From Shigella phage vb_GEC_SH_GT, in sequence record OR887633: a stretch of DNA of 64,000 bases, one strand, 5' to 3'. The position numbers were made by a program, and so were the translations under genes. Positions 7,324-63,435 of this stretch are shown piece after piece; position 1 is the first letter of the stretch; each line of letters starts with the position of its first letter. The notes below the pieces were generated by a model. It was not told where the DNA came from and did no database searches. It was given only the letters and a program-made list of their open reading frames with translations.

Positions 7324-7661
7324 TCACAAGATGTAGATGAACAATTAGAATCACAAGAACTTCCACATGAATCGCCCGTCCATACATGAACAGGAACATT
7401 AGTGTCATATGAATCAGAACTAGACTGTGTATTCTGTGTATTAGATGATGTAGTAGGTGTTGACCAGCGCCAAGGATTTTTATAATATTCCTGGGCTTCT
7501 TCATAAGTCATAGTAACTGCTTCTACTGTTCCATCTCCCATATAAACGTATTCAACTACAGTTAAAGGAAGGTAGTCATTTGAAATAGGAACTACACCTT
7601 CTCCGGGAGTTGTAGAGAAAAAATCCGTAAAGAAACTTTTAAACCAATTAAAGATAAACAT
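7320..7661 (-). CDS. hypothetical protein with Ser/Thr-rich linker and Cys-rich C-terminal tail
   Basis: 113 aa; C-terminus [18 protein letters not shown] preceded by a [15 protein letters not shown] low-complexity stretch. Confidence 0.5.
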
Positions 7662-7867
7662 TACAAAAAGCCTCTCTTGAATTCGACTTGCTTCTCGCCA
7701 TAATCATATCGAATCTCTGCATTAAATTCGACAGAACCATCTGCGTACATCATAAATGAATGCACAACAACTTCTGTAGACCATGGCTGCAGTTCATATT
7801 TCTTCATTACATGCCGTGAAATGATAATATCTAAATCTTCGTTTGGTTTAATCCAGCGATTTAACAT
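7661..7867 (-). CDS. hypothetical protein (68 aa)
   Basis: First ORF after an early promoter at 7894..7923. Confidence 0.45.
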   Translation of the reverse strand: MLNRWIKPNEDLDIIISRHVMKKYELQPWSTEVVVHSFMMYADGSVEFNAEIRYDYGEKQVEFKRGFL

Positions 7868-7893
7868 AGTGCTCTCCTCTATAAGATAATTCT

Positions 7894-7923
7894 ATTATAC
7901 CATACTCATTTTAGAAAGTAAAC
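7894..7923 (-). promoter_or_regulatory. T4-type early promoter
   Basis: Minus strand GTTTAC...TGGTATAAT; next to the soc terminator. Confidence 0.6.
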
Positions 7924-7932
7924 CGGTAAAAT

Positions 7933-7957
7933 GAAAAAAGGACTCCCGAAGGAGTCC
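7933..7957 (-). terminator. intrinsic terminator with UUCG tetraloop (after soc)
   Basis: Minus strand GGACUCC-UUCG-GGAGUCC followed by UUUUUU. Confidence 0.7.
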
Positions 7958-7965
7958 TTGAATTA

Positions 7966-8202
7966 TTAACCACCTATTTGTGTAGGCGTAAACATTGCAG
8001 CATTCTTAGTTTTCCAGTCAGCTGCATCAGAAACTACAGTAGAATATGCCGCCTTTTCAGAAGGAAAGGTCTGATAATGAGAATCTGCAATACGGTGTTC
8101 ATTTGAATATACATCAAATGCTACAGAAACTTCCATACCTTTAACTTCTTTGCCTTCACCCGCTGGATGAGTAAAGGTCTTGATGTTAACGAAACCACCC
8201 AT
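7966..8202 (-). CDS. soc: small outer capsid protein Soc
   Basis: 78 aa; YVNIKTF...HYQTFPSEKAAYSTV matches Soc (closer to RB69-type than T4 as I recall); late promoter TATAAATA upstream. Confidence 0.9.
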   Translation of the reverse strand: MGGFVNIKTFTHPAGEGKEVKGMEVSVAFDVYSNEHRIADSHYQTFPSEKAAYSTVVSDAADWKTKNAAMFTPTQIGG

Positions 8203-8233
8203 AATAAACTCCTTTATTGTTTAATTACAAGTG

Positions 8234-8241
8234 TATTTATA
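8234..8241 (-). promoter_or_regulatory. T4-type late promoter TATAAATA for soc
   Basis: Minus-strand TATAAATA about 30 nt upstream of the soc start codon. Confidence 0.6.
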
Positions 8242-9088
8242 AACCATTTTCAAACCTCTTTATCATATTTATATAGTTTTCATCGGGATAACCTAGACTA
8301 ACTGCTAACTTTCTAAAATTGACATATTTAGGTTTGTTGTTATTAATCCATAATTCTCTAAGCTCTTTTTCATAATTCCATTTAAGTTGATTTCTGCGTG
8401 CAGTTTTGCTTAAAGTTTTTCCTTTAGCTTTTAAAGCTTTTTCGGATGATTGTTTTAATTTTTGAATATTTAAAACTTCTTCTATAGATAAATTATTTTC
8501 CTTTGAATACCTTATGCAAAAATCTTTTACTACGGCTATTAGGCAATTTTTGTGAGTACCTAAAATTTCTGGATTATTTTCTTCAACTAAAATTCCCCAA
8601 TATCTTCTGTAGCGAGGCATATCCCTTGAAATCCAGTCATTATACCAAAAATCAAAGTTGGAATACATGAAAGATTTTCTTTTGCGAAGAGTATCTTGGT
8701 TTATCCATTGCTCACGTTTATCAGCCCATAACTTAATAGTAAAGTCTTTCTCTAAGTCAGAAAGCTTCTTAAATTGCGAGCTATTTACTGAGGTCATTCT
8801 CTGGAATGCATTTAGCAATCCAAATCTTCCAGTTGAACATAAGAGATAGTGAACATATATGTGTTGATATATTGGGAGATATACTCTATTCCAAGGATAT
8901 ATTTTAAAATCACTATACTCAGGAAATGCGCATTTAGGAAGTATATGATGGGCTTCTGTTTTAGATTTAATGTGAGTGTTTAACTTATACTTATCTATAA
9001 TTTTTAAGTACTCATCTAAAAGTTCCCATTGCGGGAACTTTTCTTTAAGAGCAGATTTGAAATTAATATCCATTATCTTGACGTTCAA
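8237..9088 (-). CDS. free-standing HNH homing endonuclease (Mob-like)
   Basis: 283 aa; EAHHILPKC...N...H...H spacing matches the HNH motifs of ORFs 25678..26394 and 47340..48119; sits where T4 has segF. Confidence 0.7.
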   Translation of the reverse strand: MNVKIMDINFKSALKEKFPQWELLDEYLKIIDKYKLNTHIKSKTEAHHILPKCAFPEYSDFKIYPWNRVYLPIYQHIYVHYLLCSTGRFGLLNAFQRMTSVNSSQFKKLSDLEKDFTIKLWADKREQWINQDTLRKRKSFMYSNFDFWYNDWISRDMPRYRRYWGILVEENNPEILGTHKNCLIAVVKDFCIRYSKENNLSIEEVLNIQKLKQSSEKALKAKGKTLSKTARRNQLKWNYEKELRELWINNNKPKYVNFRKLAVSLGYPDENYINMIKRFENGL

Positions 9089-11758: not shown

Positions 11759-11761
11759 TTT

Positions 11762-11926
11762 TACTCTTCTTTTTCTTTAGATTCCTCTTTTTTCTTTTTA
11801 GGAATCTGTTCAGGACCTTTATTTACTACAGCGCCTGACGTTGTTCCAGTAGAGATATTTTCAGGATTACCACCTGAATCTCCAGCGACCATATCTTCTT
11901 TAATAAATTCTTTATATGTTTTCATA
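11762..11926 (-). CDS. small hypothetical protein (54 aa, 61.1 position)
   Basis: Hand-translated ORF MKTYKEFIKEDMVAGDSGG...KKKEESKEKEE filling the gap after gene 61; below ORF-track size cutoff. Confidence 0.35.
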
Positions 11927-12283
11927 TTAACCTCTATTCATAAAAGCATTAAAAATTTGGTCATCAATTGATGGAACAGCAACCTTTTCTACATCATTTA
12001 ACAAATCATTAATTTCATCAGATAGCATAACGCATGTACCTTTATTTCCTGTAATTGTTACTGCGCAATTACGAACGTTTTCTTTATCAAATTTTAGGTT
12101 AATATTTTCGTAGTGAAAATCCTTTAATGCCGAATATATTTTTAAAATGAAATTGTCTTTTACTACAATAAACCCAACCTCACTATTAAAACGAGGTTCA
12201 TGGAAGCTGTAATAAACCTTTTCATCTATAAAATCGTATGAAATTTTTTCCATTTTTAAATATGAAAATTCAGAACTATACAT
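11927..12283 (-). CDS. hypothetical protein (118 aa, 61.2 position)
   Basis: ORF between 61.1 and sp; no motif. Confidence 0.5.
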   Translation of the reverse strand: MYSSEFSYLKMEKISYDFIDEKVYYSFHEPRFNSEVGFIVVKDNFILKIYSALKDFHYENINLKFDKENVRNCAVTITGNKGTCVMLSDEINDLLNDVEKVAVPSIDDQIFNAFMNRG

Positions 12284-12589: not shown

Positions 12590-12694
12590 GATAATCTCCT
12601 CAGTAGTTTATGTTTATATAGTATCTCAATTTTCAACAAAAGTAAACACTAGTAGAAGCAAACAGACAAATTGCAATAATTGGTGATTTCAGTT

Positions 12695-12877
12695 TCATTC
12701 TTCTCCTCCTTCATGTTGATGAACATATTCTTTTTCAAGTCTAGAGCACAAGTTTTCATATTCAACTAATAAGAGTGAATCAAGTGCGTTATTTCTATGC
12801 TGACACCGTTCTTGTAAAGAATCCATCTCTGAACGTTGTTCTTGTGTTAATAATTGATAACCTGATACTTTAGACAT
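12695..12877 (-). CDS. hypothetical protein (60 aa)
   Basis: Track ORF begins at TTG (MENKM artefact); trimmed to ATG after SD; own early promoter 12911..12942. Confidence 0.45.
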   Translation of the reverse strand: MSKVSGYQLLTQEQRSEMDSLQERCQHRNNALDSLLLVEYENLCSRLEKEYVHQHEGGEE

Positions 12878-12910
12878 TTTGTTCTCCATTTACTCGTTTG
12901 TTTTGATAGG

Positions 12911-12942
12911 TCTATAATAACATGTTTAAAACAAAAGTAAAC
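12911..12942 (-). promoter_or_regulatory. T4-type early promoter
   Basis: Minus strand GTTTAC, spacer, TATTATAG. Confidence 0.5.
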
Positions 12943-13196
12943 TATTTTATTTCCTCAAGTTCGTTAATCAATAAAAGTTCTCTGACACTAAAAACAAAGA
13001 AAAATGTGTTCCCATCAACCAGAGCATGACCGCTAATAGAACACCCTCTGCGGAATTTAGAAACTTCACAATCTAGAACTGTAAAGGGTTTTAATCCTAT
13101 GACTTTAGCTGTGCGTCTATTCAGTTCACAACCACTTGCGAATTTTTCCAAATCTTCTTCTGATTTAAACTGATATTCTCTATTAACTAGCATCAT
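12942..13196 (-). CDS. hypothetical protein (84 aa)
   Basis: Own early promoter 13227..13258; no motif. Confidence 0.45.
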   Translation of the reverse strand: MMLVNREYQFKSEEDLEKFASGCELNRRTAKVIGLKPFTVLDCEVSKFRRGCSISGHALVDGNTFFFVFSVRELLLINELEEIK

Positions 13197-13226
13197 TTTC
13201 TTTTCTCCGCGATTAGCTGATAGAAT

Positions 13227-13258
13227 TACTATAACACAACTCTATCAGCTTGTAAACT
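13227..13258 (-). promoter_or_regulatory. T4-type early promoter
   Basis: Minus strand GTTTAC...GTTATAGTA. Confidence 0.5.
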
Positions 13259-13259
13259 A

Positions 13260-13544
13260 CTATTTTACTAGCACCAATAACTGTTTCTCTAACTTGACGA
13301 TTTTACGAAAGTATCTTTTGCATTGGCGAATCTGTCGCTTCGTAGGGCGCACAGCAAACTTAATAAATTCCACTCGACCAAATGGAGGACTTTCTTCTGC
13401 TGGAATATCTAACACCAATTCCCACGTATCTGCAACAAGTGCTTTGAATTGAGTATTTTTCCTGACATTATACGGAGTAGGTTTAAATAAAACAATGTGC
13501 ATATTATCCTCGGCAATCCACTTCGCATACTTTCTTGTCATCAA
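13260..13544 (-). CDS. hypothetical basic protein (94 aa)
   Basis: ORF downstream of dmd, overlapping it by 41 nt (start may be further in). Confidence 0.4.
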   Translation of the reverse strand: MMTRKYAKWIAEDNMHIVLFKPTPYNVRKNTQFKALVADTWELVLDIPAEESPPFGRVEFIKFAVRPTKRQIRQCKRYFRKIVKLEKQLLVLVK

Positions 13545-19160: not shown

Positions 19161-19391
19161 TCAAATACAAGTAGTAATTACTCCAGTAGTGCTTACACAG
19201 GTATTACCTAATTGAACACCCAACGTTCCATTAGTATTCATATGAAGATTATCATCAATTTTTGTTGATACTTTACCATTCATGTGAATAACAGTATTAG
19301 ATTCAATCACATTCTGAGTGCCATTTTCAATAAATGGAACAGTTGCTAATGCAACTAAACACACTGCTAAACATCCATAAACAATTTTCAT
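19161..19391 (-). CDS. small secreted protein (76 aa)
   Basis: Start trimmed from TTG artefact to MKIVYGCLAVCLVALATVPF signal peptide; early promoter 19424..19455. Confidence 0.5.
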   Translation of the reverse strand: MKIVYGCLAVCLVALATVPFIENGTQNVIESNTVIHMNGKVSTKIDDNLHMNTNGTLGVQLGNTCVSTTGVITTCI

Positions 19392-19423
19392 TTTATTCTC
19401 CAAATCCGTATCAGTTGATAGTT

Positions 19424-19455
19424 ATATAGTACCACGGAAGAACAGGGATGTAAAC
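19424..19455 (-). promoter_or_regulatory. T4-type early promoter (repeated cassette copy)
   Basis: Minus strand GTTTACATCCCTGTTCTTCCGTGGTACTATATAAC followed by conserved leader. Confidence 0.6.
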
Positions 19456-19536
19456 AGTTTTGTGAAAAAATTTTTAATGAATTCCAGAGGTCCAGAATCA
19501 TCTATTTTTCCTAAGTATAGATTTATATTACTTGTA

Positions 19537-19559
19537 TGAAAAAGGGACCCGGAGGTCCC
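19537..19559 (-). terminator. intrinsic terminator (after gene 43)
   Basis: Minus strand GGGACCUCCGGGUCCC then CUUUUUC. Confidence 0.65.
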
Positions 19560-19572
19560 TAGATTTATTCTA

Positions 19573-24242: not shown

Positions 24243-24276
24243 AATTTCCTCATTCAAGTTTTAGTGTAAATTATAA

Positions 24277-24290
24277 AGGGCCGAAGCCCT
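24277..24290 (-). terminator. UUCG-loop hairpin between 45 and 44
   Basis: AGGGC-UUCG-GCCCU followed by UUAUAAUUUA. Confidence 0.5.
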
Positions 24291-24293
24291 TTA

Positions 24294-24980
24294 TTAAAAA
24301 TCGTGGGTAGAATCAGCTTCAAGAGCTACTACATAATTCGCGTGTTCACCTTCAAATTTAGCAGCACCTTGTTTACCTTTTGCCCAGAGCAGAAGTTTAT
24401 AATTTCCTGGTTGCATTTTCATATTTGCCATATTGATAATGAAATTAAATGTATTTTCACCATCATAATCACCAAGAGTCAAAGAATATTTAACACGAGT
24501 CAAAGCAGAATCTTCTACTTTATTAAAACCGTTAATTACGATTTTACCTTCTTTTACTGTGATAGCAATTGTATCAATCTGCAGACCACGAGATACACGC
24601 AACAGCTGTTGAAGGTCTTCAGCTTTAATTTCAGTAACAACAGATGCTACCGGGAATGGAATTGGTTTATTAGGAGCAACTACTGTACTCGGATCGGCTG
24701 CTGGCCAAAAAATTGTTGAACGGGCATCAGCAATTTTAATATTACCATCTTCTGACTGGGAAATTTCTGCATCATCATTAACGAGAGACAGAATACCAAG
24801 AAAACCGTTCAAATCGTAAATCGCTACATCAAAATCAATAGTGTCAGAAATATTTGCTTCTGCATAAGTTGTACCATTAACCGCGCGAGTCATAATAAAT
24901 TGACCGGATTTAAGCATAATACCAGAGTTAATAGTAGCGAAATTTTTGAGCAGAGCAGTAGTATCTTTAGACAGTTTCAT
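24294..24980 (-). CDS. 45: sliding clamp gp45
   Basis: 228 aa; T4 gp45 length and position. Confidence 0.9.
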   Translation of the reverse strand: MKLSKDTTALLKNFATINSGIMLKSGQFIMTRAVNGTTYAEANISDTIDFDVAIYDLNGFLGILSLVNDDAEISQSEDGNIKIADARSTIFWPAADPSTVVAPNKPIPFPVASVVTEIKAEDLQQLLRVSRGLQIDTIAITVKEGKIVINGFNKVEDSALTRVKYSLTLGDYDGENTFNFIINMANMKMQPGNYKLLLWAKGKQGAAKFEGEHANYVVALEADSTHDF

Positions 24981-25677: not shown

Positions 25678-26394
25678 ATGAATTATAAACTAATTTATGA
25701 AAAGTTAATCTCTAATGCTAAATCTCGAAAACTTGATTGCTATACTGAATCTCATCACATTATACCACGCTGTTTAAATGGCAGCGATGATGCTTCAAAC
25801 TTAGTAGATTTAACACCAGAAGAGCACTATGTAGCTCATCAACTTTTAGTAAAAATTTATCCTTCTGAACCAAAATTAGTCTATGCTGCTAACATGATGA
25901 CAGTTTCCACGAAATACGCTAAACGCAACAATAAAACTTTCGGTTGGATTCGTCGTAAACTCTGGGAAATAGAAAAGAATAAAGAATTCTCCCAGGAGAC
26001 ACGAAAGAAAATGTCTAATGCAGTAGCTAATAAAGCAAGACTAACTTGTCCTCATTGCGGTAAATCTGGATTAAGCGGGAATATGAATCGATGGCATTTT
26101 GATAACTGCCCTAATCACCCTAATCCTAAAGTTAGACCACCGATGTCTAAAGAACACAGAAATAATATCTCAAACGGACTTAAAGCAATCGTTCTTGAAG
26201 AAACATCCTGCGAATTCTGCGGAATGATAGGCAAGAAATGCGTTATCGCAGCGCATAGAAATTTCTGCAAGAAAAATCCAAATGGACGCAAGAAAACTGA
26301 AAAGACTGGTACTTGCGTCCATTGTGGTAAAGTTACCACTTTCGGAAATTTATCAAGGTGGCATAATGATAACTGTAAATATAAACCTAGCTAA
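25678..26394 (+). CDS. free-standing HNH homing endonuclease with triple Zn-finger-like repeats (plus strand)
   Basis: 238 aa; HNH core ESHHIIPRC...N...H; three repeats of C-x2-C...RWH-x-DNC; opposite strand to neighbours; inserted between 45.2 and 46. Confidence 0.8.
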   Translation: MNYKLIYEKLISNAKSRKLDCYTESHHIIPRCLNGSDDASNLVDLTPEEHYVAHQLLVKIYPSEPKLVYAANMMTVSTKYAKRNNKTFGWIRRKLWEIEKNKEFSQETRKKMSNAVANKARLTCPHCGKSGLSGNMNRWHFDNCPNHPNPKVRPPMSKEHRNNISNGLKAIVLEETSCEFCGMIGKKCVIAAHRNFCKKNPNGRKKTEKTGTCVHCGKVTTFGNLSRWHNDNCKYKPS

Positions 26395-29676: not shown

Positions 29677-29700
29677 ATATCAAACTCCGTATAAAGCTAA

Positions 29701-29714
29701 AGGGCCGAAGCCCT
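29701..29714 (-). terminator. UUCG-loop hairpin after agt
   Basis: AGGGC-UUCG-GCCCU immediately after agt stop. Confidence 0.45.
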
Positions 29715-30917
29715 TTATTTTGTAATAATGTCAAACTGTTCTTTAAAGCAGAAGCTTGAATCTTGGTGCTGATACAAAAATTCATAAGCTTTTTCACGTT
29801 CACGGTCATAAAGAGCTCGGTCAGATGACAGTTCTTTAATACGTTCAAATGTTGATTCCATGTCATTTTCATCAAACCAAACGATACCGCTATCATGAGA
29901 AATTAACGGAGTGTTATCAACACGGAATTTTAAATTTTCACCAGTAGATTTCCAAAATACTGGAATTGTTCCACATGCGCCAAGCTCGAGATGAGTATAT
30001 TCTAAAGAACGCTGCAGATATTTTTTGTCCAACTTGCTCAGCTGATAACCAAATCCGGATTTACTCATGCGTTCAAGCATTTCGCTATTTACATAACGGT
30101 CGAGAATTTGCGTTGGCAAATTAGGAGCAATTTTAATTTGGTCTACCTGATGAAGACGATAATACTCATATGGAATTCCTTTTTCTTTAATAGGAATGAA
30201 CGCTGGAGAACGTTCCAGACCTTCCATAATAGTACTTAGTCCTGCAGGTTTAAGATGTTTTTCGTGAAAATCAAACATCTGATAAAATCCTTTCCATGTA
30301 GTAGTACGACCAATCCAACGGTTGATATTCATGTTAATTTCAGAAACATCTTTCCAGTAGGTTGATCGAACCTTCGCAATATCCATAGGAGGCTGAAAGT
30401 TATATACGGTCGGTGCTTCTTCAATATCATCAAACAAAGAAACAGTTTCCGGATACCATTCTTTCATTAAAACTTTATTAAAATCACCATTATCAGAATG
30501 GCTAAAAATAACATCAGCCCGACGAACAGTTTCTTCTAATCCCAAATTTCGACGCAAAGAAAGAGAAGAATGGTCATGTTGATAAACTACAACACGAACC
30601 GAAGGTTTAATGTTATCAATAATTTTTTTATAGTTATTAATAGTGTCTTCTTCGACTGAAGTAGCAGGAACTGAATTGATAACTAGAATATCACAATCAT
30701 TTACCAGCTTAAGTGTTTTATCGTATTCTTTTGCCAATAAAACCGGAATTGAAAATGACTTATAATCATGCGCGCAATTACGGGTAAATGATTTATCTTT
30801 AGCATAAACCAAAGTTACTTCATGACCATTTTTAATAAACCAATCACGCTGCTCAAGAGAAAATTTAGTTACACCGCAACCTTCAAGACCTCGAGCCATA
30901 AAAATGCATACTTTCAT
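29715..30917 (-). CDS. agt: DNA alpha-glucosyltransferase
   Basis: 400 aa; N-terminus CIFMARGLEGCGVTKFSLEQRDWF and C-terminus as T4 alpha-gt. Confidence 0.95.
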   Translation of the reverse strand: MKVCIFMARGLEGCGVTKFSLEQRDWFIKNGHEVTLVYAKDKSFTRNCAHDYKSFSIPVLLAKEYDKTLKLVNDCDILVINSVPATSVEEDTINNYKKIIDNIKPSVRVVVYQHDHSSLSLRRNLGLEETVRRADVIFSHSDNGDFNKVLMKEWYPETVSLFDDIEEAPTVYNFQPPMDIAKVRSTYWKDVSEINMNINRWIGRTTTWKGFYQMFDFHEKHLKPAGLSTIMEGLERSPAFIPIKEKGIPYEYYRLHQVDQIKIAPNLPTQILDRYVNSEMLERMSKSGFGYQLSKLDKKYLQRSLEYTHLELGACGTIPVFWKSTGENLKFRVDNTPLISHDSGIVWFDENDMESTFERIKELSSDRALYDREREKAYEFLYQHQDSSFCFKEQFDIITK

Positions 30918-33300: not shown

Positions 33301-33334
33301 ACATTATCCTCAATTACATTAAAATTTTATTATC

Positions 33335-33352
33335 CAAAAAGGGCCGAAGCCC
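33335..33352 (-). terminator. intrinsic terminator with UUCG tetraloop
   Basis: GGGC-UUCG-GCCC followed by UUUUUGG. Confidence 0.55.
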
Positions 33353-33553
33353 TTAGCTAAACTTTTTGGCACCCTTCCAGCCTTCGTACATCATTGCGGC
33401 TGATATTAATATTGCTCCTGAGCAACTTGAATATTTGTGATTCCAAAACCAGTTTAGAAAAACTTCGTCATCAATACCCTGGGCTATCATATTTTCAAAG
33501 AACTGACGACGAGCTTCAGCAATTCGTTGCGATAATTTAGATTCAGGATTCAT
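33353..33553 (-). CDS. hypothetical protein (66 aa)
   Basis: ORF after terminator-like hairpin 33341..33352. Confidence 0.45.
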   Translation of the reverse strand: MNPESKLSQRIAEARRQFFENMIAQGIDDEVFLNWFWNHKYSSCSGAILISAAMMYEGWKGAKKFS

Positions 33554-44270: not shown

Positions 44271-44798
44271 TTATGCGAGTACCGTCTTTAACCGTTCTTC
44301 AAACTTCCGAAGAGTATTTTGGCGTTCAGCTCTTTGCTTTTTGTAAGTTTCAATACGCTCTGAAATGAGAGTGTATCGTTCATTTACTGATTCTTTCATA
44401 AAATCAGGAATTTCACGAGAAGCTTTAATCTCATCAAATTTATCAATAACAGCTTGCTCTTCAGCAATTAAGTTATCATACATTAAAATATCTTTCTTGA
44501 TGAACTCAATATCTTCTTGAGTTACACGAGACATTTTAGATGCTTTATCCTTTTTGTACTGTTCGTTAGTATCACGAGACCAATGTAATGTACGATTTTT
44601 ATTCGTATTCTTGTAAATTTCTACAATACCAATCTCATCAATAATAACGATCCAATTCCAACGGGATTTGTAAATTTGTCCTCCATCAACAGTGATTTCA
44701 CCTCCGATTGAGATGTCATTAAAGAACTTGCTTTGTGCTTCAGATTTAAATTTACCATCGTTGTAATTTACCAAGTTAAAAATATCTTTAGCGTTCAT
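44271..44798 (-). CDS. hypothetical protein (175 aa)
   Basis: Own early promoter 44814..44846; helical C-terminus. Confidence 0.5.
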   Translation of the reverse strand: MNAKDIFNLVNYNDGKFKSEAQSKFFNDISIGGEITVDGGQIYKSRWNWIVIIDEIGIVEIYKNTNKNRTLHWSRDTNEQYKKDKASKMSRVTQEDIEFIKKDILMYDNLIAEEQAVIDKFDEIKASREIPDFMKESVNERYTLISERIETYKKQRAERQNTLRKFEERLKTVLA

Positions 44799-44813
44799 TT
44801 TCTGTTCCTCCGT

Positions 44814-44846
44814 AGTTGATAGTTGTATAGTACCACAGAGGAACAG
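44814..44846 (-). promoter_or_regulatory. T4-type early promoter (cassette)
   Basis: Minus strand GTTTAC...TGGTACTATACAAC. Confidence 0.55.
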
Positions 44847-44858
44847 TCTTGTAAACCA

Positions 44859-45173
44859 CTAAAAGAAACTTCTTTCACAATTTTTTCCACTGAACCATGC
44901 GCTCACTGCTTTCTTAGTCTCAGGAGCAGTGTTATCCATAAACCATTCAAAGGCAGCCTTTTTATGATTCTGGAGGGCTTCTCGGGCTTTAATCTGCTCA
45001 CGGTCTATTAACACTAACATATGAGCCTTTCTTGTCACCATGGGCTTCTTATGATTTTTTGAATATTCCCAATCATTTGTCCATCGCATCGTTGTTGCGA
45101 ATTGAAGTACAGCTTCTTTAATTTTAGTTTCGTAAATTTCACGAGCCTTTGAGTATAACATCACTACCTCCAT
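44859..45173 (-). CDS. hypothetical protein (104 aa)
   Basis: ORF. Confidence 0.45.
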   Translation of the reverse strand: MEVVMLYSKAREIYETKIKEAVLQFATTMRWTNDWEYSKNHKKPMVTRKAHMLVLIDREQIKAREALQNHKKAAFEWFMDNTAPETKKAVSAWFSGKNCERSFF

Positions 45174-45262: not shown

Positions 45263-46231
45263 TTATTTCAGAAGAGTAACCTCAGCGATTTCTTCCCAAC
45301 CGTTTTTGTCGGTCATAATAAAGTCAGCAAGATAAAGTGCAGTACGCAGTGAAACATTACGTAAACGGTTAACATTGACTTTCATCCATGATAATGCTTT
45401 GTAAGTTTCTTCATCAGAAAGACCGCGTTTTTGCATCATGTCGGTTGAAAGAATAACATCTTCAACCCTGACCATAATTTCTTCATTAGTGTGAACACCC
45501 AAATCTAAATAAACTGAGCGGGACACTAATGCTTGTAAATGTGGAGCAAGTTTAGTACCACGGTCTAATTCGCGGTCAATGTCAACGTTTGTGATAAAAA
45601 CAATCGTTCCTTTAAATTCAAACTCACGCTCAATGCCTTTTTCTTCTAAGTAAGAAGATGCAGTGCTCCAGCAGACTTTACGGGTCTCTCCAGTGTCCAG
45701 AGCAGCTTTCAGAAGATTAAGAATGTCCATATCAGAGAAAACATCCACATCATCAATCAAAAGGACAGAATTCTCTTCACGATTATTCCAAAGCTGTTCA
45801 TAAAGACCGATACCGGAGATTTTACCGTTAATGCTTTTATATTCAATGTATCCATTGTCATTTGCTTTATTTAAAGCTTTATCTAAAGAATACGTTTTAC
45901 CAATACCCGCCGCACCAGAGATAATTAATGAACGAATGTTTCCGTTAATAATACCATTCGTCATCATTCCCATAACATTAAATCTTTTATTAATGCGGGT
46001 TTTCATATCTTCATATGATTCTTTAACTTCTTCAACTTTTACACCATCATATGAAATGTCTGATTTGTAAACCCAAACACCACGACGTTTACCGTCAATT
46101 TCAACAAAAACTTTACCATCTCCTTGTGCATCTACCGGAGCATTATCCGGGAACCATTCGCCTAAGAGCTCAAAAGTTCCAGAGATTTCTTTACCGAAGT
46201 AGATACCCTTATTGATAGTTACAGTTTTCAT
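45263..46231 (-). CDS. P-loop NTPase (AAA-like)
   Basis: Start trimmed from TTG artefact; Walker A GAAGIGKT and Walker B VLLIDDVD; early promoter 46264..46295. Confidence 0.6.
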   Translation of the reverse strand: MKTVTINKGIYFGKEISGTFELLGEWFPDNAPVDAQGDGKVFVEIDGKRRGVWVYKSDISYDGVKVEEVKESYEDMKTRINKRFNVMGMMTNGIINGNIRSLIISGAAGIGKTYSLDKALNKANDNGYIEYKSINGKISGIGLYEQLWNNREENSVLLIDDVDVFSDMDILNLLKAALDTGETRKVCWSTASSYLEEKGIEREFEFKGTIVFITNVDIDRELDRGTKLAPHLQALVSRSVYLDLGVHTNEEIMVRVEDVILSTDMMQKRGLSDEETYKALSWMKVNVNRLRNVSLRTALYLADFIMTDKNGWEEIAEVTLLK

Positions 46232-46263
46232 TTTATTCTCCAAATCCGTATCAGTTGATAGAT

Positions 46264-46295
46264 GTATAGTACCATAAAGCTTTATGCTTGTAAAC
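46264..46295 (-). promoter_or_regulatory. T4-type early promoter (repeated cassette copy)
   Basis: Minus strand GTTTAC...TACTATACAT; leader identical over 37 nt to the copy at 19381..19420. Confidence 0.6.
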
Positions 46296-46320
46296 AGTTT
46301 TGTGAAAAATTTTTGAAATA

Positions 46321-46343
46321 AAAAAGGGAGCCCGAAGGCTCCC
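46321..46343 (-). terminator. intrinsic terminator with UUCG tetraloop
   Basis: GGGAGCC-UUCG-GGCUCCC followed by UUUUU. Confidence 0.7.
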
Positions 46344-46345
46344 TA

Positions 46346-49703: not shown

Positions 49704-49943
49704 TTAAACTCTCGTATTATGATCGATAATTTCATCAAGAAACATATCTAACGCTTCTAAAGCATTATCAACTTTAGCTTCAAGTTCATCAATGCCTTTA
49801 TTTGCAATGCCTGACGAAAACCAAGCAAAGTCACTAAGTTCCTCGTCTGCTTTACGAATTAAAGCTACCAATTCCTTAATTTTATCCGCTTGTTCGATAC
49901 TAATCATTATTCCACCACATATGAAAGAGAGAATATTGCACAC
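49704..49943 (-). CDS. small acidic helical protein, TREQ family member
   Basis: 79 aa; ...[19 protein letters not shown]... Confidence 0.45.
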
Positions 49944-50140
49944 GCCATGTGAGTTGCAACTTCATCACACATATTATAACGTTTCTTAAGAAGTTCTACA
50001 AGTTCTTCACTAGTAACTTCATCCATGTCGACGAAAAAATCACCATTAATGATGACGTAGATATTTCCTTCTTGATTGAGTGCTTCAATTTTCATGATGT
50101 TCTCCTCTTTATCCGATGGTTGTATAGTATCACAGCTCAA
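49907..50140 (-). CDS. hypothetical protein (77 aa)
   Basis: Early promoter 50121..50153. Confidence 0.45.
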
Positions 50141-50153
50141 ATGGAAAGTAAAC
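50121..50153 (-). promoter_or_regulatory. T4-type early promoter (terminator-promoter cassette)
   Basis: Minus strand GTTTAC...TACTATACAACC; preceded by UUCG-loop terminator. Confidence 0.55.
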
Positions 50154-50163
50154 CGGTAAAATG

Positions 50164-50185
50164 AAAAAAGTCTCCCGAAGGAGAC
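50164..50185 (-). terminator. intrinsic terminator with UUCG tetraloop
   Basis: GUCUCC-UUCG-GGAGAC followed by UUUUUUC; same cassette as 7933..7957. Confidence 0.7.
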
Positions 50186-50190
50186 TAACG

Positions 50191-53105: not shown

Positions 53106-53643
53106 TTACTATTTCCAAAAGTTTATTATTTTTAAGGTAATTAGCCTTTTCTAGGACTTCAGAAGCATATTTAGAACCAGCTTTAACATTCCATCCCGAA
53201 TTATAAGAGGATATTGCTTTTCTTATATCGCCCTTATGTATATTTAACCAATAAGAAAGTTCAATGTACGCCCAGGAAGCTGAATTGGACCGTTTATTCA
53301 ACATTCTTTTTATTTCAGCATCGGTCATATTATAACCAAGTTCCTTAACTCTTGCTCGCATAGTAGGCAAATAATTTTGGAACATTCCGTAGGCGTGATG
53401 CTTTGGTTTAGATTTTAAATTAACTCCGCCAGAGCTTTCTTGCCATAAAATAGCAGCCATTATATGACCTAATCCGCTCTTGTGGATATTTTTGTGTGTT
53501 TTATATTTTCCATCCTTAGAAAATTGTTCCCCGAATTGATACGCGTAACGCATGTTATCGAGTTGGACATTACTGAAAGTATGCTCGGAGCTATGTGCCA
53601 TCATTGAAATGGCCAATAGACCAGCGAGTAGTGCTTTTCTCAT
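53098..53643 (-). CDS. secreted lytic transglycosylase-like protein (SLT domain)
   Basis: 181 aa; signal peptide; LWQESSGG...YGMFQ catalytic Glu-Ser-Ser motif. Confidence 0.7.
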   Translation of the reverse strand: MRKALLAGLLAISMMAHSSEHTFSNVQLDNMRYAYQFGEQFSKDGKYKTHKNIHKSGLGHIMAAILWQESSGGVNLKSKPKHHAYGMFQNYLPTMRARVKELGYNMTDAEIKRMLNKRSNSASWAYIELSYWLNIHKGDIRKAISSYNSGWNVKAGSKYASEVLEKANYLKNNKLLEIVND

Positions 53644-53650
53644 GCTTACC

Positions 53651-54112
53651 TCATTGAGTTTTAATTACTGCTTTAGAAGCCTTTCCTGGTAAACGACGAC
53701 TGTTAATAATTGCCATCCTACATTGAAGTGACGGGTCTTTGAACTTCTCATTAGGTTTACAAACTGTAAATCCAAGCCAAAGATTTCCATCTGTGATTTC
53801 TAAACGTCCAGGACGATATTCAATTCCATCAATAAAATCCTCGTCAATGTCAGGACGCGGAGGCATACTCAGGAATTCATTAACTTCTAAAACATGGTCT
53901 TTTATTTTATGGAATAATTCAAAAACATATGTCTCATCAATCTCCCGTTGAATTGCACGATCAAGAAGATGCTGAGAATATTTTAGATGAAACGATGAGA
54001 CTCCTGCTGCTTTTGATGCCTCACGAATCTCATTGTTAATTTGACGAAACTCCGACTCAAAGTGACGACGAAGCTTATTTCGACGGATAAAAACTTCTGT
54101 ATTGATAGTCAT
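53651..54112 (-). CDS. regB: endoribonuclease RegB
   Basis: 153 aa; N-terminus MTINTEVFIRRNKL as T4 RegB; early promoter 54140..54169. Confidence 0.9.
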   Translation of the reverse strand: MTINTEVFIRRNKLRRHFESEFRQINNEIREASKAAGVSSFHLKYSQHLLDRAIQREIDETYVFELFHKIKDHVLEVNEFLSMPPRPDIDEDFIDGIEYRPGRLEITDGNLWLGFTVCKPNEKFKDPSLQCRMAIINSRRLPGKASKAVIKTQ

Positions 54113-56318: not shown

Positions 56319-56792
56319 TTATTTGAATGATTTGACGTACTGAATAGAACCTTTACTATTCACGAAAGCGATTTTACCATTTTTATTATACATGGTAGCA
56401 GTACGCTGATAGCCATAAGTTTGTTTACCAGATTGATAACCAACTAATGCGAAATTATCTTCACCCATTTTATTCTGTTTAGAGCGAATACGTTCATGAC
56501 CGTGTGCCATAAGAACCTTAGCATCACCAGTTGAAATTGATCTACGAGTTTTTTCATCTTCAACTGTATTAACAAAGTCGTCAAATGAATCAAATTTAGC
56601 ATGGGATTTATTATACAGTTTTCCATCTACTGCATAATTATATCCCTGTACATCCATCTCAACTTCTGTACCATCATCCAATACAGCAGTAATTTTTTGA
56701 CCTTTTTTAAATTTCAAAAGATCAGTAAAAGATTCAGCAATAATTTGAGAATTAATAGCTGCTTCAGTGATAAATTCTTGATATGTTTTCAT
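56319..56792 (-). CDS. internal head protein (IP-like) with capsid targeting sequence
   Basis: N-terminus MKTYQEFITEAAINSQIIAE is a T4-type CTS cut by the prohead protease after the L-x-E motif. Confidence 0.6.
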   Translation of the reverse strand: MKTYQEFITEAAINSQIIAESFTDLLKFKKGQKITAVLDDGTEVEMDVQGYNYAVDGKLYNKSHAKFDSFDDFVNTVEDEKTRRSISTGDAKVLMAHGHERIRSKQNKMGEDNFALVGYQSGKQTYGYQRTATMYNKNGKIAFVNSKGSIQYVKSFK

Positions 56793-56801
56793 ATGTTTCC
56801 T

Positions 56802-57277: not shown

Positions 57278-58518
<1,241 letters not shown>

Positions 58519-60329: not shown

Positions 60330-60350
60330 TCCTATTTACTCCAAGTAATA

Positions 60351-60364
60351 GGGGCCGAAGCCCC
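60351..60364 (-). terminator. UUCG-loop hairpin
   Basis: GGGGC-UUCG-GCCCC. Confidence 0.4.
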
Positions 60365-60370
60365 TTATCA

Positions 60371-60964: not shown

Positions 60965-61009
60965 AGTATTTCCTTAGGTTAATTAAGATTTAAAATCCAT
61001 GAGAGTATT

Positions 61010-61183
61010 ATACTCCGGATAGTTTGTAAACTATTTCAACATCGCCTTTTGCTGCTTTATAACCTTCAGCCCAAGATACAACCGAGTTTTTATCTGAAGA
61101 TTCAAATTCTGGCATTGGGCTTTCGCCAATGTTCACGCAGTATGTTTCTTCATTTTCGTCGAACCAAATAATTAAAGTAGTCA
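61010..61183 (-). CDS. small hypothetical protein (57 aa)
   Basis: Hand-translated MTTLIIWFDENEETYCVNIGESP...; below track cutoff. Confidence 0.3.
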
Positions 61184-61252
61184 TTTATTTCTCCGTTTCT
61201 GTATTTGTTTTGATAAGTCTATAATAACACCGTCCTTGGTGTTTGTACACAA

Positions 61253-61516
61253 TTATTTCATATTATTGAAATATTCTTCTGCGATTTCGTCGTTATCATG
61301 GTAAACTTTAGAAGACAGTTTAACATAACCTTCTGCCGTGAACATGTTAATCACAACCTTTACGGTATACCACTGACCGTCTTCATTACCCATTACTGCA
61401 TAGGTTTCAAACATCGGATGGTCAGGACCGATAACTTTAATATCATTCACTGTACGACCAAAATCTTCTGAAACACATTTCATAAAGAAGTTGAACAGTT
61501 CACCGTAATTATCCAT
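61253..61516 (-). CDS. hypothetical protein (87 aa)
   Basis: Start trimmed from TTG artefact; early promoter 61557..61589. Confidence 0.5.
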   Translation of the reverse strand: MDNYGELFNFFMKCVSEDFGRTVNDIKVIGPDHPMFETYAVMGNEDGQWYTVKVVINMFTAEGYVKLSSKVYHDNDEIAEEYFNNMK

Positions 61517-61556
61517 TTTATTCTCCAAGTTGTTTTCTGTATCAGTAGTTGATAGT

Positions 61557-61589
61557 TGTATAGTACCATGGAAGAACAGGGATGTAAAC
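61557..61589 (-). promoter_or_regulatory. T4-type early promoter (cassette copy)
   Basis: Minus strand GTTTACATCCCTGTTCTTCCATGGTACTATACAAC. Confidence 0.55.
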
Positions 61590-61689
61590 AGTTTAATGAA
61601 AAAATTTTAAAAAAGTTTTAGGGAATTTTAGGGCGAGGAGGGGTAATTAAAAGATAGGATAATATATTATAAAGGGTAGAAACTAAATG

Positions 61690-62065: not shown

Positions 62066-62142
62066 CTGGTCGAGGCAGTAGGGATCGAACCTACGACCCA
62101 GGACTTAGAAGGTCCTTGCTCTTCCTTCTGAGCTATGCCTCG
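62066..62142 (-). tRNA. tRNA-Arg (anticodon UCU)
   Basis: Hand-folded cloverleaf; T-arm GGUUCGAUCC; anticodon loop CUUCUAA; CCA encoded. Confidence 0.85.
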
Positions 62143-62146
62143 TATT

Positions 62147-62221
62147 TGGCGGACGTGATAGGATTCGAACCTATAACCAATCGCTTAACAGGCGATCGCT
62201 CTGCCATTGAGCTACACATCC
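62147..62221 (-). tRNA. tRNA-Asn (anticodon GUU)
   Basis: Hand-folded; acceptor GGAUGUG/CACGUCC; anticodon loop CUGUUAA; CCA encoded. Confidence 0.75.
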
Positions 62222-62225
62222 AAAT

Positions 62226-62312
62226 TGGTGGGGAGTGATGGAGTCGAACCACCCGAGTCGCAATGACAATGGATTTACAGTCCACACCGCTACCTCTACG
62301 GGATAACTCCCC
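62226..62312 (-). tRNA. tRNA-Tyr (anticodon GUA), long variable arm
   Basis: Hand-folded; anticodon loop CUGUAAA; 14-nt variable arm; CCA encoded. Confidence 0.7.
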
Positions 62313-62321
62313 AAATTAATT

Positions 62322-62396
62322 TGGTGGCCCTGGGTGGAATTGAACCACCATCTGGCGATTATGAGTCGCTTGCTTGAACCTTCCAGCTACAGGGCC
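62322..62396 (-). tRNA. tRNA with CAU anticodon (Met or lysidine-modified Ile)
   Basis: Hand-folded; anticodon loop CUCAUAA; CCA encoded; corresponds positionally to T4 tRNA-Ile. Confidence 0.75.
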
Positions 62397-62397
62397 T

Positions 62398-62473
62398 TGG
62401 TGCTGATTGACGGAATCGAACCGCCGACGTCCTCATTACAAGTGAGGTGCTCTACCTACTGAGCTAAATCAGC
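62398..62473 (-). tRNA. tRNA-Thr (anticodon UGU)
   Basis: Hand-folded; anticodon loop CUUGUAA; CCA encoded. Confidence 0.85.
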
Positions 62474-62478
62474 AAAAC

Positions 62479-62568
62479 TGGCGGAGGCGATAGGATTTGA
62501 ACCTATGAGTCGCCGGAGCGACTGCCGATTTTCAAGACCGGTGCATTAAACCACTCTGCCACGCCTCC
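62479..62568 (-). tRNA. tRNA-Ser (anticodon UGA), long variable arm
   Basis: Hand-folded; anticodon loop CUUGAAA; 18-nt variable arm; CCA encoded. Confidence 0.8.
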
Positions 62569-62570
62569 AG

Positions 62571-62644
62571 TCTCCGCGGCAGGATTTGAACCTGCGACAT
62601 TCTGCTCCCAAAGCAGACGCTCTACCAAACTGAGCTACACGGAG
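62571..62644 (-). tRNA. tRNA-Pro (anticodon UGG), CCA not encoded
   Basis: Hand-folded; anticodon loop UUUGGGA; ends at discriminator. Confidence 0.8.
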
Positions 62645-62654
62645 TAAATTAAAT

Positions 62655-62728
<74 letters not shown>

Positions 62729-62733
62729 AAATT

Positions 62734-62820
62734 TGGTGCGAGAAGTGGGACTCGAACCCACAAGGAAATCATTCCGCAGCATTTTAAGTGCTGTGCCTTT
62801 ACCAATTTGACCATTCTCGC
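62734..62820 (-). tRNA. tRNA-Leu (anticodon UAA), long variable arm
   Basis: Hand-folded; anticodon loop CUUAAAA; CCA encoded. Confidence 0.8.
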
Positions 62821-62826
62821 GCTATA

Positions 62827-63435
62827 TTATTTATTACGTGAAAAAGACTGTTCTATCAATTCTGGACACTTTCGTTCTATCCATTTTCTAGCTTTTTGTG
62901 GGCTTATACCTATTATTTTAGCAGCTTTACTAACCCATCCAAATTTAGAATAATCGATTTTAACTAATTCTTCGTAAATTTCATCAGTTAAAATCTTTTC
63001 ATTAATATTTACCAGTAAATGATATAATTTATTATCATTAGCAATTTTAATGAATCTTTTATAGTTTCCGCCTTTACTTAAACCTAATGAAGTAATTGCA
63101 GATGATATAGTAGCTGAATTTAATAGTGCGTTTAAAATTTCTTCATCACTAACATTATAACGCTTTTTATTATTTTTAATATTTTTACCAGCAAAAGTAT
63201 CAGTTTGCGAATGGCAATTTGGACATAATAATCTTAAATTTGATTTAAGATGATTTTTATTATTTCCATCAATGTGGTCTAATTGCAGAACAATATGCTT
63301 ATTTTGCCATTTTGAAATTTTACAAATTGCACACTCATATGGAAAAATATTTTCTTTTATTATTTTGTCTTTCAGCTTTCCTGTACTAAAATTTGGATGT
63401 TTTCCTTCAAAAATTTCAGCTAATTTAGTATCCAT
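62827..63435 (-). CDS. free-standing HNH homing endonuclease abutting the tRNA array
   Basis: Start trimmed to MDTKLAEI; HNH-Zn motif CAICK...LQLDHIDGNNKNH...LLCPNCH; stop 6 nt from tRNA-Leu. Confidence 0.75.
   Translation of the reverse strand: MDTKLAEIFEGKHPNFSTGKLKDKIIKENIFPYECAICKISKWQNKHIVLQLDHIDGNNKNHLKSNLRLLCPNCHSQTDTFAGKNIKNNKKRYNVSDEEILNALLNSATISSAITSLGLSKGGNYKRFIKIANDNKLYHLLVNINEKILTDEIYEELVKIDYSKFGWVSKAAKIIGISPQKARKWIERKCPELIEQSFSRNK

Follow-up and report, generated by a model that had tools for sequence, protein, structure and literature searches.

The recurrent sequences in the 64,000-nucleotide stretch of DNA from Shigella phage vb_GEC_SH_GT analysed here (sequence record OR887633; hereafter the window) very probably represent early transcription units of a Tequatrovirus, present as dispersed paralogous copies between which ectopic exchange mixes promoters and moves open reading frames (ORFs). 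A probability of approximately 0.85 was assigned to this interpretation. It builds on the anatomy of these cassettes, on their correspondence to sites in the genome of phage T4, on sequence identity beyond the promoter consensus and on indel junctions that lie within the cassettes of related phages; recombination would be the cause of both the mosaics and the indels. A preliminary description of the window had interpreted the repeats as early-promoter/leader cassettes that resemble promoter-early stem-loop (PeSL) elements and are plausible substrates for recombination. The T4 sites, the architecture, the match to the PeSL consensus and the variability of neighbouring ORFs all supported that interpretation.

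Setting and anatomy of the cassettes

The window belongs to the T4-like genus Tequatrovirus and spans coordinates of approximately 7.6 to 73 kb of the T4 genome (AF158101). Except at a number of indels and replacements, it was collinear with the genomes of T4 and PP01 at 93–98% identity, and the 10-kb piece surrounding the cassette at 19381 showed 97–98% identity to hundreds of Tequatrovirus genomes. Its content corresponds to the long early region between motB.2 and the tRNA cluster, in which, according to the annotation of T4 and PP01, all genes lie on the minus strand. The cassettes must therefore be read as the reverse complement, and all six copies were indeed found on the minus strand.

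Each copy showed the same order of elements: an A/T-rich upstream region, GTTTAC, an 18-nt gap, TGn, TAnnAT, a leader and an ATG start codon. TTTACA, contained within GTTTACA, represents a sigma-70 -35 hexamer; counted from TTTACA, the spacer was 17 nt long and ended in TGn. The -10 hexamer was either TACTAT or TATAAT, and the leaders, with lengths of 26–43 nt, contained a GGAG/GAGG ribosome-binding site ahead of the ATG.

The copy at the imm.1 locus (19385..19480, minus strand) comprised an A/T-rich region at 19456-19480, the -35 motif GTTTAC at 19450-19455, a gap at 19432-19449 ending in TGG, the -10 hexamer TACTAT at 19426-19431, a 34-nt leader with GGAG at 19392-19425 and an ATG at 19389-19391. 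A terminator-like hairpin past gene 43 (AGGGACC-UCCG-GGUCCCU followed by a U run; 19543..19560, minus strand) was located 87 nt upstream of its -35 motif. In the copy preceding nrdC.10 (46225..46344, minus strand), a terminator hairpin with a UUCG loop (46325-46344) and an A/T-rich upstream region were followed by -35 and -10 motifs at 46290-46295 and 46266-46271, a gap containing the palindrome CATAAAGCTTTATG, a 34-nt leader at 46232-46265 and the ATG (46229-46231) of nrdC.10 (322 aa, 45263-46231). The diverged copy upstream of nrdC.8 (44796..44880, minus strand) had its -35 motif at 44851-44856, its -10 motif at 44827-44832 and a 28-nt leader that ended at the ATG (44796-44798) of nrdC.8 (175 aa, 44271-44798, minus strand). 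The copy upstream of e.8 (61514..61615, minus strand) had its -35 motif at 61584-61589, its -10 motif at 61560-61565 and a 43-nt leader, followed by the ATG (61514-61516) of e.8 (87 aa, 61253-61516, minus strand).

A second type of cassette was represented by two further copies. Upstream of mrh.2 (68 aa, 7661-7867, minus strand, with its ATG at 7867), a copy at 7865..7959 (minus strand) consisted of a -35 motif at 7918-7923, the -10 hexamer TATAAT at 7894-7899, a 26-nt leader and, at 7938-7959 on the same strand, the terminator hairpin AAGGACUCC-UUCG-GGAGUCCUU. Upstream of mobD.5 (62 aa, 49907-50095, minus strand, with its ATG at 50095), the other copy (50093..50186, minus strand) combined a -35 motif at 50148-50153, the -10 hexamer TACTAT at 50124-50129 and a 28-nt leader with a terminator hairpin with a UUCG loop at 50169-50186, again on the minus strand. 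An adjacent UUCG-loop terminator occurred in only three copies, with its 3' end 14 nt and 15 nt upstream of the -35 motifs at 7923 and 50153, and 29 nt upstream of that at 46295. A search for perfect stems yielded no hairpin within 130 nt upstream of the -35 motifs at 44856 and 61589.

The leaders were predicted to be unstructured, with minimum free energies of 0 to -2.1 kcal/mol and z-scores of -0.15 to +1.08. As the leaders do not fold, a role of the shared leader as a structured RNA was rejected. No Rfam family matched at any of the cassettes.

Correspondence to early promoters of T4

A sigma-70 scan reported TTTACA-17-TACTAT, with TG ahead of the -10 hexamer, at 19454, 46294 and 44855. In A/T-rich DNA, such a generic scan did not discriminate between signal and background (30 sites versus 30.8 expected; 6 versus 6.5), and a T4-specific pattern and position weight matrix were therefore used. 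With a threshold of 12, the matrix built from the cassette sites identified 20 sites on the minus strand of the window and none on the plus strand. This strand specificity fits real, oriented signals.

When the same scan was applied to T4, sites were found at positions matching all six window copies. T4 site 27080, with imm.1 downstream, corresponds to the copy whose -35 motif starts with the G at window position 19455; likewise, T4 sites 55384 (nrdC.10 downstream), 53943 (nrdC.8), 70696 (e.8), 15288 (mrh.2) and 58780 (mobD.5) correspond to those starting at 46295, 44856, 61589, 7923 and 50153, respectively. In the record of Yersinia phage fPS-90, a 'predicted early promoter' and a 'terminator' are annotated at the corresponding places. 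These T4 promoter sites have reportedly been mapped experimentally, and T4 early promoters are reportedly listed by Miller et al. (2003) and by Liebig and Rueger (1989).

T4 early promoters have been described as 'uber' UP/-35/TGn/-10 promoters with additional consensus (Hinton, 2010; PMC2988021). The window copies carried every sequence element of this T4-type early promoter (Pe) class: a -35 motif GTTTAC(A/T), a 17-nt spacer, TGn, TAnnAT and an A/T-rich UP region. These elements, together with the positional match to T4 sites, indicate that the cassettes are early promoters of a T4-like phage, for which promoter activity is predicted in vb_GEC_SH_GT. They differ from the class in one respect, namely a pair-specific identity among the window copies, for which membership of the class does not by itself account.

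Identity of the copies beyond the promoter consensus

Exact and near-exact repeats linked the copies in pairs. The leader and start codon of the imm.1-locus and nrdC.10 copies shared the 37-nt exact repeat CTATCAACTGATACGGATTTGGAGAATAAAATGAAAA (19385-19421 and 46225-46261), which had no match in 100 dinucleotide-shuffled sequences, and a repeat finder aligned 19381-19434 with 46221-46274 at 94% identity over 54 nt. The preliminary description had placed a cassette with a 37-nt identical core at these loci, and its position is thereby confirmed. Over 65 nt, the promoter segment 19413-19477 was 92% identical to 61547-61611, 77% identical to 46253-46317 and 71% identical to 44814-44878, so that the diverged copies previously noted near 44798 and 61516 are also present. 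A promoter core proposed to be common to the imm.1-locus and e.8 copies is indeed shared, but starts with TATAGTACC rather than with GTATAGTACC; the imm.1-locus copy reads ATATAG where GTATAG had been written. For the second type of cassette, described earlier as a UUCG terminator plus promoter at 7900 and 50130, both the UUCG hairpins and a 27-nt exact core (7914-7940 and 50144-50170; no matches in shuffled sequences) were found. This pair was approximately 75% identical over approximately 78 nt in each of T4, PP01 and the window, and the likeness among cassette copies in general was already there in T4.

The ORFs behind the six copies, with lengths of 76, 322, 175, 87, 68 and 62 aa, all differed, as had been claimed, but not all of them are small (322 and 175 aa). 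A check for paralogy showed that ORFs behind similar cassettes were mutually unrelated.

Because early promoters of the T4 type share an unusually long consensus, the deciding question was whether identity between copies extends beyond it. The 20 minus-strand sites of the window with GTTTAC-N18(17)-TAnnnT upstream of a ribosome-binding site and ATG were aligned without gaps, and each column of the alignment was shuffled independently, which retained the consensus and broke pair-specific linkage. Over the 85 non-hexamer columns, this null yielded at most 50 identical columns, with a 95th percentile of 45. The pair 19455/61589 was identical at 56 of these 85 columns and the pair 19455/46295 at 55; values for 44856/61589, 46295/61589 and 7923/50153 were 49, 46 and 46, respectively. 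In the 18-nt spacer, which the consensus leaves unconstrained, 17 of 18 positions were identical between 19455 and 61589 (null maximum 16), and in the first 22 nt past the -10 hexamer, 20 positions were identical between 19455 and 46295 (null maximum 18). Repeats that represent only the generic promoter consensus, without extended identity, had been named beforehand as the outcome that would speak against cassettes; since the column-shuffle test showed identity in excess of the consensus, that explanation fails.

Mosaic structure of the promoter at the imm.1 locus

Variation among relatives was analysed for both halves of the imm.1-locus cassette. Its leader alternated between CAACTACTGATAC and the nrdC.10-like form CAACTGATAC; within this locus, leaders varied in the presence or absence of TAC and at single positions. 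This observation bears on a reading that would complement the promoter interpretation, in which the shared leader CUGAUACGGAUUUGGAGAAUAAAAUG acts as a post-transcriptional site, either a GGAG target of RegB or a RegA operator, and co-regulates the ORFs behind the imm.1-locus and nrdC.10 copies. Consistent with such a role, the 37-nt exact identity covers the leader, ribosome-binding site and first codons rather than the promoter, GGAG sits in an unstructured leader, RegB is described in the T4 record as an enzyme that cuts some of the T4 mRNAs at GGAG, and this phage lineage has both regB and regA. Against it, different ORFs follow the same leader in different phages and the leader varies within a single locus. 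On account of these two observations, exchange fits better than conservation of an operator, and a post-transcriptional origin of the leader identity is considered improbable.

Six sites distinguish the spacer of the nrdC.8 promoter (aagactgttcctctgtgg) from that of the e.8 promoter (atccctgttcttccatgg), and in all five genomes compared each of these promoters was of its own type at six of six sites. At the imm.1 locus, the spacer always consisted of a combination of nrdC.8-type and e.8-type states at the six diagnostic sites, with at least seven combinations among 12 genomes. It was wholly nrdC.8-type in slur14 and RB18, wholly e.8-type in IsaacDaniel, and mixed in T4, fPS-90, 101117BS1, PP01, wV7, 235Ecol030PP, ZCEC15, F26 and the window. 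In the window copy, the spacer resembled that of e.8 and the leader that of nrdC.10. This pattern suggests ectopic gene conversion into the promoter of the imm.1 locus; it may instead reflect allelic lineages of long standing or repeated mutation at sites under loose constraint.

A more far-reaching proposal is that the promoters of the imm.1 locus, nrdC.8, nrdC.10 and e.8 form a subfamily in ongoing ectopic conversion in natural tequatroviruses, with the imm.1 locus as recipient and fixed donors, and that the slot between nrdC.11 and nrdC.10 behaves as an ordered array of cassettes, with 0–4 ORFs in modules A, B and C, built via these promoters. We give this proposal about an even chance. If true, it would quantify and orient the published idea of PeSL shuffling, with no new mechanism.

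The mosaics and the column-shuffle results also bear on pure functional convergence, that is, selection towards one optimal promoter and translation start in the absence of shared ancestry or exchange. Part of the identity between copies surely reflects functional constraint: the consensus of T4 early promoters is unusually long (PMC2988021), and GTTTAC, TGG, TAnnAT, ..ATCAACTAC.. and GGAG are common to many unrelated promoters of the window. However, identity reached positions that are unconstrained in the family, as indicated by the spacer (17/18) and by whole-cassette pairs above every column shuffle; alleles of a single locus matched two different paralogues across the entire spacer; and the cassettes contained indel junctions. 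Convergence as the whole explanation is thus already disfavoured, and we regard it as quite unlikely.

Variation of open reading frames next to the cassettes

The preliminary description had asked whether the ORFs flanking the repeats are variably present in related genomes, and this was found to be the case at two of the copies, 19455 and 46295. The 76-aa ORF behind the imm.1-locus copy (19161..19391, minus strand; PHROG 4189, function unknown) separates the leader from imm.1 and has a hydrophobic N-terminus. It is absent from T4, in which the leader runs directly into imm.1. In the comparison of the window with T4, microhomology (ATGAAAAT) occurred at both junctions of the ORF; at the junction of the ORF with imm.1, the shared stretch was 8 nt long and was located at the start codons, outside the promoter, which is a point against exchange through the cassette. 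The ORF was matched in 325 phage records; for comparison, the 10 kb around it were covered to 80% or more in 493 records. In IMG/VR, the exact leader occurred in five stretches, a number too small to survey the sequences behind it, and the GenBank phage collection served this purpose.

Around the nrdC.10 copy, a stretch of 2.1 kb that spans nrdC.8 to nrdC.11 was sampled in rows spaced evenly down the ranking of matches. Among the 30 rows with a coverage of at least 94%, 15 had an insertion somewhere in this stretch, and in six of seven genomes inspected in detail the insertion was located in the slot between nrdC.11 and nrdC.10. Across tequatroviruses, this slot of the 46295 cassette held 0–4 extra ORFs: none in the window, T4, PP01 and RB18; a module C (66 aa) in KAW1E185; a module A (161 aa) in G2133 and F13076; a module B (49 + 87 aa) in fPS-90; modules A and B in G4500; and modules A, B and C in FT. 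The slot was also empty in RB6, in which a seg-like endonuclease gene sits between nrdC.10 and nrdC.9. Every module was bounded by an early-promoter cassette, and the switch points were located within TAnnAT..CTATCAA and GGAGAATAAAATG. The nrdC.10-type promoter core was kept in the slot and is predicted to drive whichever ORF follows it.

Two further differences from T4 had boundaries at or near promoters of the same type. A 630-bp segment with two small ORFs (12649..13278, minus strand), absent from T4 and containing promoters at 12942 and 13257, was delimited by the -35 motif of the promoter at 12647 and by a point 21 nt upstream of the -35 motif of the 13257 promoter; it is a cassette-bounded insertion or deletion. 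At the e.7 locus (60981..61252, minus strand), 438 bp in T4 were replaced by 272 bp in the window, with an unrelated 58-aa ORF (61008-61184), and both ends of the replacement were inside early-promoter cassettes (61031 and 61250).

Copies that are dispersed, share one orientation and carry different cargo might also suggest autonomous mobile elements, either MITE-like or dependent on a site-specific recombinase of their own, and a stem-loop-specific protein has been raised as a possibility (Arbiol et al., 2010; PMC2839356); this reading was rejected as highly improbable because the copies occupy the same loci across genomes (five of the five compared: T4, PP01, RB18, fPS-90 and the window), and in addition the junctions were variable and inside homologous segments, neither terminal inverted repeats nor target duplications were seen, and the general T4 machinery is the only known source of a recombinase, a point also made by Arbiol et al. 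(2010; PMC2839356).

Proposed mechanism and its scope

In the favoured interpretation, host RNA polymerase with sigma-70 would start transcription of the next gene block at each cassette, presumably straight after infection, and directly upstream of three of the cassettes the preceding unit would end in an intrinsic terminator with a UUCG loop. The dispersed direct copies, with tracts of 27–65 nt at 90–100% identity, are long enough for the very active homologous recombination of the phage; Arbiol et al. (2010; PMC2839356), citing Singer (1982), state that homology shorter than 50 bp suffices for the T4 recombination system. Ectopic exchange could then copy patches from one promoter to another, homogenising or mixing them and leaving mosaics, and could insert, delete or replace ORFs between or behind cassettes. 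An incoming ORF would thereby already have a promoter and a ribosome-binding site.

The contribution of such exchange to the differences between genomes was assessed from the 55 distinct indel boundaries of the window relative to T4 and PP01, seven of which were inside cassettes. This represented an enrichment over uniform placement (p = 0.016); relative to random placement at gene junctions, with 21 cassettes and approximately 125 junctions, there was no excess (p = 0.84). As enrichment was absent under this gene-junction null, the cassettes are not claimed to be the main driver of differences in the window. Many of the indels and replacements were homing-endonuclease genes, unrelated to promoters, including mobB, mobC, I-TevII, segA and segF in T4 and new HNH-type ORFs in the window. 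The directly repeated cassettes at 44856 and 46295 are 1,439 bp apart, and approximately 500 records hold the stretch between them; in none of the sampled rows had nrdC.9 and nrdC.10 been lost by deletion between these cassettes. The constancy of the cassette loci in the five genomes compared likewise weighs against a general role of exchange.

Relation to known systems

The identification of PeSL-type cassettes is correct but already known for T4-type phages (PMC4122927; PMC2839356). The promoter class and the idea of shuffling have both been published, so that the present result confirms, in a further genome, what was known. The mosaic at the imm.1 locus and the array of modules A, B and C are, as far as checked, only refinements of the published PeSL picture.

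The cassettes are predicted to give T4-like phages immediate and very strong early expression. In addition, they appear to be portable linkers, at which small accessory genes are gained, lost or swapped while the promoter and ribosome-binding site are preserved. This would be relevant to host adaptation and to the engineering of therapeutic T4-like phages, the latter because the slots between nrdC.11 and nrdC.10 and between gene 43 and imm.1 look naturally tolerant of insertions.

In their account of the T-even pair PST/T4, Comeau, Arbiol and Krisch (2014; PMC4122927) catalogued PeSLs, gave the consensus TTTACW-N17-TAYWAT and noted proximity to indels. The window copies matched this consensus with TTTACA-17-TACTAT, were A/T-rich upstream and had a ribosome-binding site and start codon at their 3' end. 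A further PeSL trait, proximity to ORFs that vary among close relatives, was observed at 19455, 46295, 12647/13257 and 61031/61250. PeSLs of the T-even type also have a stem-loop that works as terminator or attenuator, inside the promoter or shortly upstream of it; in the window, a hairpin was adjacent to the promoter at 7923, 50153 and 46295. With the elements described in that account, the cassettes share the genus, the architecture, at some copies an upstream stem-loop, and a location in hyperplastic early regions with ORFs that differ between close relatives. Compared as a class rather than element by element, they showed no essential difference from that description, with two of the six window copies lacking a perfect-stem hairpin within 130 nt.

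PeSLs of phages RB49 and phi1 combine strong sigma-70-like promoters with stem-loop terminators in hyperplastic regions, and their promoter activity, terminator activity and formation of mini-circles have been shown experimentally (Arbiol et al., 2010; PMC2839356). The window cassettes resemble them as terminator/promoter composites, proposed as linkers for modular shuffling, before small ORFs of unknown function. RB49 PeSLs differ in having near-perfect TTGACA/TATAAT hexamers and stems with G/C runs, often inside the promoter, and T-even elements have been called their 'analogs, not homologs' (Arbiol et al., 2010; PMC2839356). The analogy drawn in the same paper to integron gene cassettes and lambdoid 'morons' applies to small cargo genes that are swapped at defined slots together with local expression signals; in contrast to those systems, the window cassettes had no integrase or attC, and their exchange appears to be general homologous recombination acting on regulatory sequence.

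The repeats at the internal-protein (IP) loci of T-even phages (Repoila et al., 1994, as summarized in PMC2839356) likewise combine early promoters of the T4 type and A/T-rich stem-loops, which flank highly variable small genes. The window copies differ from the repeats in that summary in being located outside the IP loci and in mostly having no inverted repeat across the -10 hexamer. Inverted repeats did bracket the -10 hexamer at the window promoters 13257, 13745 and 49341.

Related Early-Promoter Cassettes and Their Leaders

A third pair of related cassettes, each a T4-type early promoter followed by a leader with ribosome-binding site, was found on the - strand at 12871-12922 and 61178-61229. 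These copies were 81% identical over the -10 box and leader and had the sequence TATTATAGAC(C/T)TATCAAAACAAA..GGAGAA in common; the ORFs behind them (64 and 58 aa) were unrelated. The TATCAAAACAAA leader type was also found in a Dhakavirus, and in the tequatroviruses fPS-90, KAW1E185, G4500, and FT it preceded the ORF modules that occupy the nrdC.10 slot as insertions.

In the intergenic slot between nrdC.11 and nrdC.10, three ORF modules of 161 aa (A), 49+87 aa (B), and 66 aa (C) occurred in varying combinations. This combinatorial array was seen across fPS-90 (L013, at 53330-53965) and further phage records (L022, L023, L025, L026, and L027). Each module had its own early promoter, module A was accompanied by a second terminator, and one of the two ORFs of module B was annotated as DUF4031.

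Inverted Repeats and Common ORF Starts

Perfect inverted repeats of 9-13 nt were located on either side of the -10 box in three - strand promoters, with -35 boxes at 13257, 13745, and 49341 (for the last, AGTTGACAAGATT..AATCTTGTCAACT). This layout was similar to the stem-loop-over-promoter arrangement of the PeSLs of RB49 and of the IP loci of T-even phages.

Near-identical 5' coding sequences were detected at the start of three - strand ORFs (11891-11927, 56758-56794, and 57525-57561). The first belonged to a 54-aa ORF (11761-11925) placed at the gene 61.1 position, and the other two, at 56.8 and 57.5 kb, lay within the region matching the T4 ipII/ipIII locus. The N-terminus of the 54-aa ORF, MKTYKEFI, resembles the capsid-targeting sequence at the N-terminus of T4 internal proteins.

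Insertions and Replacements Relative to T4 and PP01

A 238-aa ORF on the + strand (25678-26394) encoded an HNH-like motif (..ESHHIIPRCLNGSDD..EEHYVAHQ..) and is probably a free-standing homing endonuclease. The 786-bp insertion around this opposite-strand ORF, between 45.2 and gene 46, was missing in T4 and PP01 alike. Also missing in both relatives was a 616-bp insertion in the tRNA cluster region, where Rfam identified nine tRNAs at 62070-62820; this insertion was taken up by a 202-aa ORF (62827-63435, - strand) with the HNH-like motif ..LQLDHIDGNNK...

At 7966-9073 (- strand), two ORFs took the place of the T4 soc/segF region: a diverged one of 78 aa and one of 278 aa. The latter included the sequence ..HHILPKC.. 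and may represent a different homing endonuclease. The low-coordinate end of this replacement adjoined the terminator of the cassette with its -35 box at 7923, upstream of mrh.2.

Four 26-nt repeats with a GGGCC-GAAG-CCC hairpin (24269-24294, 29693-29718, 33332-33357, and 60343-60368; 73-88% identity) formed a family that appears to represent another type of intrinsic terminator, separate from those with a UUCG loop.
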